30,282 bases of DNA, taken from the NCBI GenBank assembly GCA_046726135.1, contig JBKOZY010000466.1:1-30282 (forward strand), written 5' to 3'. This stretch comes from Pseudomonadota bacterium (lineage in GTDB: Bacteria > Pseudomonadota > Alphaproteobacteria > Rhizobiales > Aestuariivirgaceae). This document shows, piece after piece, positions 1,767 to 3,520 of this stretch (positions within the stretch are counted from its first letter, which is position 1; the number at the start of each line of letters is the position of its first letter). Under the pieces are notes generated by a model. That model was not told where the DNA came from, made no database searches, and saw only the letters and a program-made list of their open reading frames with translations. Position numbers and translations under genes: made by a program.

Positions 1767-1920
1767 AAAAAAACCGGCCCATGTGCCACTCGGCTTGTCA
1801 CCTCCGGAACGGGGTTTCCGGAACCGCTCTCCCGCCCACCGCGATCGAACCGCGATTGTGGAGAAGGCCACCAGCCCTTGCGCTGGCAATGACAAGCCGG
1901 TTGCTCACGAAGCCGGCTTG
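1767..1920 (-). promoter_or_regulatory. Candidate structured cis-regulatory 5' leader RNA of speD-speE
   Basis: Perfect 10-bp inverted repeat (1791-1800 / 1890-1899) enclosing three hairpins, a competing 8-bp inverted repeat (1893-1900 / 1913-1920) and a U7 tract at 1773-1767. Confidence 0.5.
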
Positions 1921-1930
1921 CGTTGGCGGC

Positions 1931-2044: not shown

Positions 2045-3520
2045 ATGCTCGACCGTCCAAGGGCGTCCGCCACCGGTGCAAGGCCGAGCGGTCCGCGCCT
2101 CGCCTGGATCGAGGTGGCGCCCGATGCGCCCTATTTCGTCACCGGCGACGGGCGCGACTGGACGCCGATCGGCCAGAATGACGCGGTGAGCTGGGAAGGA
2201 CTTTCGGGCCTTTATCGCCGGCGCGATCGCGTGGCGGCGCGCCGCTATCTCGAACGCCTTGCCGATCACGGCGTCACCACGCTCAGGCTGATGCTCGAAT
2301 ATGCCGAGGTTCCGGATTTCCTGCTCGAGGACCCGATCGGGCGGTTTCGCCCCGAGATGGTGCAATTGTGGGATGATCTGTTCGCGCTGCTCGAGGAGCT
2401 TGGCCTCAGGGTCCTGCTGACCCCGTTTGATACTTTCTGGACCTGGCTCAAATTCGCCGAGCATCCTTACAGCCGGGCGCGCGGCGGTCCGCTCGATCGT
2501 CCCTCGCGCGCACTGCTCTGCGCCGCGACCATGAACGCCATCAAGGCGCGGCTCGCCTTCGCCACCAGGCGCTGGGGCGCGAGCGGTGCTCTCTTCGCTT
2601 GGGACCTGTGGAACGAGATCCACCCCGGCCAGGCCGAGGAGAGTGCTGAGCCATTCCCTGTCTTCATCCAGGAGCTGAGCGATCATCTGCGCCGGCTCGA
2701 GCGCTCCATCCATGGCCGCGCCCATCTTCAGACGGTGTCGCTGTTCGGACCGGAGATGAAATGGCGTCCACACATCCCCTTTGCCGACACCATCCTTCGC
2801 CATCCCGCGCTCGATTTCGCCAATCTCCACATCTATGAGGAAGGCACCATCGATGATCCCGCGAACACCGTCGACCCGGCGGTGGCGATGGGTCGGCTGG
2901 TCGCGGAGCATATCGGCGAGACACCGAAGGGCCGGCCGTTCTTCGACTCCGAGCACGGACCCATCCACAGCTTCAAGGACAAGAAGATCACGCTGCCCGA
3001 GCCGTTCGACGACGACTATCACCGCCATGTTCAATGGGCCCATCTCGCGGCTGGCGGCGCGGGCGGCGGCATGCGCTGGCCCAACCGGCATCCCCACCGC
3101 CTGACGCCGGGAATGTTGGCCGCCCAGCACGCAATGACGAAGTTTCTGCCGCTCATCGCCTGGCAGCGTTTCGACCGGCGCAATGTCAGCGCCGCCGTCA
3201 CCTGCCGCGATGCTCGAGGCCGTATCGTCGAAGAGAAGGTGGTCGCGCGCTTTGCTGCTGCAAGCACGGACCAGGCGATCGCTTATTTGCTGCGCCGCGA
3301 CATCATCGGCGGCGACGGCCGGCTTCAACGCGGCGCGCCGCCGCTGTCACTTGCGATCACTGTTCCAGAGCTTGCGCCCGGCCGCTATCGCGCCACGCTG
3401 TTCGACACCGAGCGCGGTGCGATCCTCGAGTCGGCCGAGGTGGTTTCCGAACGCGAATGCGGCGCAATCCTGTCGGTGGCGGTTGGCACCGACCTCGCCA
3501 TTGCCTTCACGAGGAAGTGA
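2045..3520 (+). CDS. Clan GH-A (GH5-like) glycoside hydrolase, ~491 aa, no evident signal peptide
   Basis: AWDLWNEIHP (acid/base N-E motif), ANLHIY and FFDSEHGP (nucleophile-like Glu). SD GAGG at 2037-2040 before ATG 2045. Confidence 0.7.
   Translation: MLDRPRASATGARPSGPRLAWIEVAPDAPYFVTGDGRDWTPIGQNDAVSWEGLSGLYRRRDRVAARRYLERLADHGVTTLRLMLEYAEVPDFLLEDPIGRFRPEMVQLWDDLFALLEELGLRVLLTPFDTFWTWLKFAEHPYSRARGGPLDRPSRALLCAATMNAIKARLAFATRRWGASGALFAWDLWNEIHPGQAEESAEPFPVFIQELSDHLRRLERSIHGRAHLQTVSLFGPEMKWRPHIPFADTILRHPALDFANLHIYEEGTIDDPANTVDPAVAMGRLVAEHIGETPKGRPFFDSEHGPIHSFKDKKITLPEPFDDDYHRHVQWAHLAAGGAGGGMRWPNRHPHRLTPGMLAAQHAMTKFLPLIAWQRFDRRNVSAAVTCRDARGRIVEEKVVARFAAASTDQAIAYLLRRDIIGGDGRLQRGAPPLSLAITVPELAPGRYRATLFDTERGAILESAEVVSERECGAILSVAVGTDLAIAFTRK

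Follow-up and report, generated by a model that had tools for sequence, protein, structure and literature searches.

A conserved four-way-junction leader RNA upstream of speD-speE in Aestuariivirgaceae, a candidate transcription attenuator of an uncatalogued family

Introduction

Does the RNA that precedes speD control the expression of the speD-speE gene pair and, if so, how would it do this? The question is raised by a locus within the stretch of DNA analysed here (30,282 nt, hereafter the window), in which a gap of 342 nt between speD and a divergent ORF (2045-3520) is occupied, on the minus strand, by the leader RNA of speD-speE. To our knowledge, only one class of polyamine-sensing riboswitch has been validated to date, a re-tuned SAM-I aptamer, and little is established about how bacteria other than the Firmicutes detect polyamines through RNA. 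A first-pass annotation of the window had described the leader as a four-way junction with mutually exclusive pairings, and had read it as a switch in which P1 and the junction act as antiterminator and a short local hairpin acts as terminator. Here we examine the leader in the window and in its relatives, and arrive at a wiring in which these parts are assigned different roles.

Results

The leader and its parts

The features of the locus are given below in the direction of transcription.

1958-1953 and 1936-1931, minus strand: promoter, with -35 TTGATT and -10 CTAAAT respectively, conserved in relatives; predicted transcription start at about 1925-1922
1920-1912, minus strand: element 1 (e1), CAAGCCGGC; 5' strand of the putative long-range terminator stem or, alternatively, of P0
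1920-1913, minus strand: 5' strand of P0, CAAGCCGG, the 3' partner of which (CCGGCUUG) lies inside element 2
1911-1901, minus strand: L0, the loop of P0; its 5' part pairs with 1790-1779 and extends the terminator stem
1900-1888, minus strand: element 2 (e2), CCGGCUUGUCAUU; 5' strand of P1 plus the junction UU or, alternatively, 3' strand of P0
1887-1870, minus strand: hairpin P2, GCCAGC-GCAAGG-GCUGGU, with covariation
1868-1823, minus strand: hairpin P3, GCC..UUCUCC..CGCGG-loop-CCGCG..GGAGAG..GGU, with covariation
1822-1803, minus strand: hairpin P4, UCCGGAA-ACCCCG-UUCCGGA, with covariation
1800-1791, minus strand: element 3 (e3), UGACAAGCCG; 3' strand of P1 (closing helix of the four-way junction)
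1790-1779, minus strand: spacer S34, the 3' portion of which lengthens the terminator stem by pairing with L0
1778-1774 and 1773-1767, minus strand: element 4 (e4), GCCGG followed by U7; putative 3' strand and release site of the terminator
1751-1735, minus strand: hairpin P5, GCCCG-UAGUGGU-CGGGC, downstream of the putative terminator
1719-1713, minus strand: Shine-Dalgarno sequence (SD), GGGAAGG
1702-1700, minus strand: start codon of speD, ATG
1702-1211, minus strand: speD, S-adenosylmethionine decarboxylase (Bacillus-type, pyruvoyl; PF02675, E 1.5e-36; TIGR03330, E 1e-38)
1214-300, minus strand: speE, spermidine synthase (TIGR00417, E 1.8e-84; NF002010, E 3e-101)

The four-way junction is the minimum free energy (MFE) fold of 1930-1690 in RNAfold (-112.4 kcal/mol; z = -2.68 against dinucleotide shuffles). 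It is closed by P1, in which CGGCUUGUCA (1899-1890) and UGACAAGCCG (1800-1791) form 10 perfect pairs, and encloses P2, P3 and P4; P3 runs from an invariant GCC/GGU base through UUCUCC/GGAGAG and an internal loop (ACAA / GUGGGCG) to a distal hairpin. All of the sequences and helices quoted in the first-pass annotation are present where it had placed them on the minus strand, as is the hairpin that it had drawn ahead of the SD (P5, 1751-1735). With a transcription start near 1924 and the speD ATG at 1702 the leader would be about 220 nt long. The proposed promoter and start are supported by the motif CTTGAy-N17-CTAwAT, which lies at a fixed distance of 9-10 nt 5' of CAAGCC in nearly all relatives for which upstream flank is available, although a simple promoter scan left the promoter of the window's leader unflagged. 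Given this conserved spacing, the transcript is predicted to start 2-4 nt before e1. The GTG start codon of speE overlaps the stop codon of speD (GTGA, 1211-1214), suggesting translational coupling of both enzymes. The divergent ORF upstream of the promoter (491 aa, plus strand) matched no Pfam or NCBIfam family at E<=0.001.

A cmscan against Rfam 15 returned no match in the whole window at gathering score, nor in 1600-2100 at E<=10, and this excludes the SAM-I to SAM-VI, SAM/SAH and speF leader families and the polyamine-linked motifs (e.g. ldcC) that Rfam holds. The earlier statement that the leader belongs to no recognised family is thereby borne out, and full-text literature searches turned up no earlier description of a comparable speD leader. 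That this structure exists and is absent from the catalogues we regard as almost certain. A tRNA or tRNA-like element was also considered and rejected: ARAGORN found none in the window, the tRNA and tmRNA families of Rfam gave no match, and relatives do not keep the GUUCGAU loop seen in the window.

Distribution and gene context

Comparison of the leader with 60 relatives by blastn showed that it is present in all five other genomes of the same genus (85-93% identity). Outside the genus, four genomes from g2, g7 and g9 matched across the junction core at ~73% identity, and g17 gave shorter matches at 77%. speD was found downstream in 11 of these 13 loci, and one of the remaining two ended at a contig edge. 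A covariance model (R1) built from 12 sequences identified 30 carriers among 151 genomes from the same GTDB family, each with a single full-length copy on the sense strand, and these represent 7 of 20 genera (E values of 1e-18 to 1e-40); the second matches in G006 and G025 were antisense hits at the same locus. The carriers are Hyphomicrobiales named 'Aestuariivirgaceae bacterium' and 'Anderseniella sp.'. No match was obtained with R1 in 150 other genomes across the order, or with model R2 in the sample of the class (150 genomes, 150 families), and this narrow distribution (one family among the sampled genomes) limits the general reach of our observations. Pattern searching of genome contigs with the P1 strands alone yielded mostly chance matches and five real ones, and a pattern scan of metagenomes yielded 37 matching stretches, 28 of which passed the covariance model. 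The combined alignment (A3) comprises 58 sequences, 49 of them distinct; 19 of the 49 were retrieved with a pattern that demanded intact e1 and e2, and 30 genome hits are free of that selection.

The link to speD-speE is exclusive. The speD start codon lies 50-74 nt downstream of the element in every unique locus with flank (47 of 47), and speE follows speD in most loci whose flank extends that far. The speD upstream regions of two sister genera (g4 and g20) gave no significant leader match with filters off, which shows that the element is not obligatory for speD in the family. The speD genes of genomes of this type (G008, G027, G061, G070 and others; L220-L226) are 51-77% identical and are without the leader motif.

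Two subtypes of the leader can be distinguished by P3, which in the first, that of the window, is long and contains a conserved internal loop (ACAA / UGGGCG). In the second, P3 is short and P4 mostly ends in a GCAA loop; the distal part of P3 is variable, and is absent in this short subtype. A metagenomic copy (L177:3184-3442) carries an insertion of ~110 nt in the loop of P2, with the P2 stem kept and the U tract weakened (GGUAUUUU), and is either insertion-tolerant or decaying.

Covariation and strand specificity

In the 49 distinct sequences of A3, 95.7% of cells pair, compared with 87.6% in column shuffles, and 14 pairs have changes on both sides; when the partner is slid by 1-3 columns, pairing falls to 33-53%. 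Covariation in relatives, which the first-pass annotation had named as a check, is strong for P2, P3 and P4. All cells of P2 pair (100%), and compensatory double changes occur at six of its seven pairs, as seen in GCCAGC/GCUGGU, GUCGGC/GCCGGC, CCCCGC/GCGGGG, CUCAGC/GCUGAG and UGCGAU/AUCGCA. P3 covaries at three of its five modelled pairs, and P4 has double changes at two pairs with 100% of cells paired. There are 321 G-U pairs as against 6 A-C pairs, and the antisense score is about a quarter of that of the sense strand (42.6 and 170.5 bits in L063), which together place the constraint on the RNA strand and not on the DNA. The leader is a conserved and structured 5'-leader domain with covariation that is tied to the genes of one pathway, as is generally expected of a riboswitch.

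While the remainder of the leader covaries, four segments (e1-e4) are near-invariant. The sequence of e1, CAAGCCGGC, is identical in all 49 sequences and pairs with 1778-1770 in every one of them. e2 is nearly invariant and can form either 10 bp with 1800-1791 or 8 bp with 1920-1913. In e3 the near-invariant stretch is UGACAAGCC (1800-1792), and the changes in P1 that occur there are one-sided (A/G, C/U), with the pairs kept throughout.

A predicted long-range terminator stem

The RNAalifold consensus pairs e2 with e3 (P1) and e1 with e4, so that the junction is nested within the e1:e4 stem. In each of the 49 sequences e1 and e4 pair; in the window GCCGG pairs with CCGGC of e1 and is followed by the U7 tract. 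The stem is lengthened by covarying, lineage-specific pairs between the segment that follows e1 and the segment that precedes e4 (UCGUG/CAUGA, CACU/AGUG, CACG/CGUG, CCUGA/UCAGG, CAUGG/CCAUG and CCAACAUG/CAUGUUGG), and with this extension the duplex reaches -14.6 to -27.7 kcal/mol across the 49 sequences. Native extensions are on average more stable than cross-clade combinations (-6.25 and -4.80 kcal/mol, respectively; p = 2.5e-4, with the caveat that the sequences are related). A G+C-rich stem directly at five or more U, as in an intrinsic terminator, is thus present in the form of a long-range stem, and a scan of the minus strand for local-hairpin terminators found no adequate hairpin before the U tract. 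It is unusual for a terminator that its stem should close over a domain of ~100 nt.

The first-pass annotation had assigned the role of terminator to a local pairing of e3 with e4 (AAGCCG/CGGUUU). This hairpin is possible in the window, where it is weak (about -7 kcal/mol), but it is not conserved in other genera: the mean energy of e3:e4 is -6.4 kcal/mol, and the pairing is broken where e3 reads AAGCAG, AAGCAA or AAGUCG, that is, in most genera. Since e1:e4 is universal and extended and e3:e4 is broken, the terminator is best read as the long-range stem closed by the 5' end of the transcript. Much of the switch that had been proposed is retained, namely the four-way junction, the mutually exclusive pairings, the U-tract terminator and a conserved leader located in cis, and it is the assignment of roles that is not supported. 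Because the terminator encloses the junction, the folded junction would be the termination-competent state, which reverses the logic predicted before. The junction state is compatible with termination and, judging from the sequences, is probably required for it.

The competing hairpin P0 and the energy balance

The alternative pairing of the 5' strand of P1 with 1920-1913, suggested earlier, corresponds to P0, an 8-bp helix of CAAGCCGG and CCGGCUUG that competes with P1. P0 is paired in 99.5% of cells, a figure that is partly built in by the pattern selection of 19 of the 49 sequences on e1 and e2, and it shows no covariation, both of its strands being invariant; the length of L0 varies between lineages from 10 to 15 nt. 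Mean duplex energies are -16.0 kcal/mol for e1:e2 and -14.8 kcal/mol for e2:e3. A single substitution in e2 of L043 weakens P0 and P1 equally (-9.5 and -9.3 kcal/mol), and one in L016 weakens both, P0 more so (-11.2 kcal/mol, P1 -15.3). For a nascent RNA that ends just past e3, ddG(P1-P0) is +0.13 +/- 1.9 kcal/mol (48 sequences; totals of -41 to -69 kcal/mol), and at full length, with e4 included, the state with P1 and the terminator is favoured by -14 +/- 3.6 kcal/mol. In these calculations the energy profile is that expected of a kinetically controlled switch. A DNA operator reading of the inverted repeat CAAGCCGG/CCGGCTTG was rejected in view of its variable spacing (10-15 bp) and the strong strand asymmetry. 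P0, P1 and e1:e4 are invariant and so lack true compensatory support; a protein site or descent from a repeat element, among other causes, could also account for their being conserved.

A similar dispersed repeat

R1 also produced weak matches (33-42 bits, model positions ~32-131) at several places per genome in two sister genera, which represent an intergenic repeat of ~100 nt (e.g. L166:95-215, equivalent to G012:C2:100778-100898; L163-L170). The repeat is an imperfect palindrome, for which a four-way junction and a single long hairpin are alternative folds. In common with the leader it has an outer stem (CUUGUCAU/AUGACAAG), a junction U(U), hairpins with GCCGG/CCGGC and CCGGA/UCCGG and the four-helix layout, but it occurs in many copies, is palindromic and is not tied to speD, whereas the leader is single-copy, non-palindromic and flanked by e1 and e4. 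Repeat loci gave no match in Rfam or in the PLSDB plasmids, and no tRNA with ARAGORN. The many dispersed copies that characterise REP and MITE elements are not found for the leader, which has one copy per carrier. The junction of the leader may have been recruited from such a repeat. This origin would suit a structural or cation-sensitive module as well as an aptamer and so tempers a riboswitch reading, and the resemblance of the core to a multi-copy repeat makes for a weaker case for a dedicated metabolite pocket.

Discussion

A model for control of speD-speE

Our data suggest a transcription-attenuating speD-speE leader of an uncatalogued family, with a nested terminator and an OFF-switch logic, and as a whole this model seems to us to have slightly better than even prospects. 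In the model the transcript would begin 2-4 nt 5' of CAAGCCGGC (e1), which would first pair with CCGGCUUG of e2 to give P0, after which P2-P4 would form. Emerging e3 (UGACAAGCCG) would nucleate on the unpaired UGUCA toehold of e2 and displace e1, whereupon P1 would close over the four-way junction, and the freed e1, held near the 3' end by P1, would zip with the spacer and with the GCCGG that precedes U7. The outcome would be a terminator stem of 12-15 bp around the whole junction, at which transcription is predicted to stop before speD; if P0 persisted, no competent terminator could form and speD-speE would be transcribed. With P0 and P1 so closely balanced in energy, any factor that stabilises the junction in its folded form would be expected to turn the operon OFF, and a few kcal/mol of such stabilisation would decide the outcome. 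That the leader controls speD-speE by premature termination we consider likely, and we lean towards the folded junction being the OFF state.

With regard to the effector, a product of the pathway would be favoured, spermidine or another polyamine in the first place and dcSAM or MTA thereafter. The chance that the effector is a specific small molecule at all appears to fall a little short of even, and that it is spermidine or a close polyamine in particular is rather unlikely. In its fullest form the proposal is of a new riboswitch class for spermidine or another product of SAM decarboxylase and aminopropyltransferase, with an aptamer inside the terminator that was exapted from a dispersed repeat, and with closure of P1 by the ligand transferring the 5' end of the mRNA out of an anti-terminator hairpin and into the terminator; we think of this as possible but doubtful.

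Leader-peptide attenuation was considered and rejected, as no conserved upstream ORF was found: the ORFs of the leader vary in frame, length and peptide from lineage to lineage. L0 contains an AUG in one subtype only, and there a 3-nt indel region alters the peptide.

Alternative explanations

The same RNA and terminator could respond instead to a protein bound at the junction or at the repeated ACAAGCC elements, or to generic polycations (Mg2+, polyamines). The folding of four-way junctions is strongly cation-dependent, and several properties of the leader agree with such an effector: its most conserved nucleotides are helix strands (e1-e4) and not loops or bulges, its junction core resembles a repeat that has dozens of matches per genome, and L177 tolerates a large insertion in the loop of P2. 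The subtypes differ in P3 and in the loops, and few unpaired nucleotides besides those of the junction are universally conserved. However, no gene for an RNA-binding protein is linked to the leader, its neighbours being speD, speE and the divergent ORF that lacks a Pfam family, and with loop and spacer lengths that vary a rigid protein site is not obvious. We judge an effector of this kind to be unlikely.

In the wiring proposed by the first-pass annotation, a ligand that stabilises the junction would switch the operon ON, by way of P1 and the junction as antiterminator and the 3' strand of P1 with CGGUUU as local terminator. AAGCCG/CGGUUU reaches about -7.6 kcal/mol in the window, and when P0 is forced the Anderseniella subtype folds a UUGGC/GCCGG hairpin that adjoins the U tract, both of which would fit this scheme. 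It is made improbable by the loss of e3:e4 pairing in the genera with altered e3, and by the retention of e1:e4 throughout A3 along with its complementary extensions, in a consensus fold that nests the junction in the terminator.

Another reading that we hold to be improbable is that of a stand-alone small RNA of ~150 nt with its own promoter and terminator, which would act in trans or bind protein, and for which the position before speD would be incidental or would serve supply by readthrough. Promoter, highly structured rod-plus-cloverleaf RNA and strong terminator do together make up a complete unit, and the folded terminator state is favoured by 14 kcal/mol at equilibrium, but the leader was never found away from speD in the 47 loci with flank, and the invariant P0 alternative is left unexplained by a static small RNA. 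The region past the terminator is also against it. Between the U tract and the ATG there are ~65 nt that contain a conserved hairpin and the SD, which leaves no space for a separate speD promoter. At the position of P5 almost all of the 24 representatives have a hairpin, the sequence of which is unrelated from one to the next; when each was folded separately, z averaged -2.1. Structure that is kept past the terminator, together with the lack of promoter space, argues that speD-speE are expressed by readthrough, as the attenuation model would have it, and a conserved pre-SD block in this region likewise counts against a free-standing small RNA. The block, CAUCUACUGGUUGGGGAGGGACCC, includes the SD and lies 25-30 nt before the speD ATG (e.g. 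L021:1447-1480). It is near-invariant outside the window's genus, far above what an SD would need, and the window's genus differs there (equivalent positions 1703-1730).

Finally, that a REP/MITE-like repeat copy was simply fixed in the speD leader with no regulatory role is very unlikely. The leader model does match the sister-genus repeat at 33-42 bits, with CUUGUCAUUGCC...GAUGACAAG and the four-helix layout in common, and blastn finds 42-54 repeat matches in each of three genomes and 12 in another. The leader, however, occurs once in each carrier, at a constant place with respect to promoter and speD across seven genera, its compensatory changes preserve the four-way junction and not the long palindrome of the repeat, G-U pairs far outnumber A-C pairs, and the window's genome has just a 32-nt fragment of the repeat elsewhere.

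Comparison with known systems

The attenuation model places the leader beside several known systems, from each of which it differs. As the first-pass annotation had correctly stated, a SAM-I-variant riboswitch that senses spermidine occurs upstream of polyamine genes, including speD and speE, where it acts through an intrinsic terminator as a genetic OFF switch (Salvail et al., 2023; PMC10853860). Like the leader, it has a four-way junction closed by P1 and polyamine genes downstream, a resemblance of shape and context only: the leader has no match to RF00162 at E<=10, the junction sequences differ and the phylum is a different one. The 5' strand of the terminator lies upstream of the junction in the leader and downstream of it in the spermidine riboswitch. 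SAM-I aptamers carry a K-turn in P2 and a pseudoknot that joins the P2 loop to J3/4, neither of which is evident in the leader: its P2 is a plain hairpin of 6-7 bp in every sequence, and inspection by eye of the loops of P2 and P4 revealed no consistent loop-loop complementarity. By analogy, OFF logic driven by an end product would match that of the validated spermidine riboswitch (Salvail et al., 2023).

Polyamine genes are likewise preceded by conserved, structured RNAs in the case of the speF leader (RF00518), which is from alphaproteobacteria too, and of the ldcC, potC, odc1 and potE motifs. The downstream genes differ, and the leader described here has no match to any Rfam family, these motifs included where they are part of Rfam. 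It is an independent, covariation-supported RNA dedicated to speD-speE and, as such, a concrete and easily testable candidate. The likeness of its core to a multi-copy repeat also hints that regulatory RNA domains may be recruited from repetitive DNA.

In terms of layout the nearest parallels are found elsewhere. In the HMP-PP riboswitch (thiS motif) the aptamer is embedded in the terminator, the MFE structure is the terminator and readthrough depends on an alternative fold that excludes it (Atilho et al., 2019; PMC6478431), so that, as proposed for the leader, sensor and intrinsic terminator are nested and not in series. There, however, a tiny aptamer competes with the terminator stem and the ligand switches expression ON, whereas in the leader the 'loop' of the terminator is taken up by a junction of ~100 nt with which the terminator is compatible, and the competitor is a 5' hairpin. 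Attenuators of the trp type also employ four short segments with overlapping complementarity to decide the fate of a U-tract terminator, in the arrangement 1:2 plus 3:4 versus 2:3; the leader would use 1:2 versus 2:3 plus a nested 1:4, and has no conserved leader peptide. This layout departs from the order of aptamer followed by expression platform, as the 5' end of the transcript would close the terminator around the sensor and a 5' hairpin would serve as anti-terminator and, if true, it would widen the range of architectures for which search pipelines could look.
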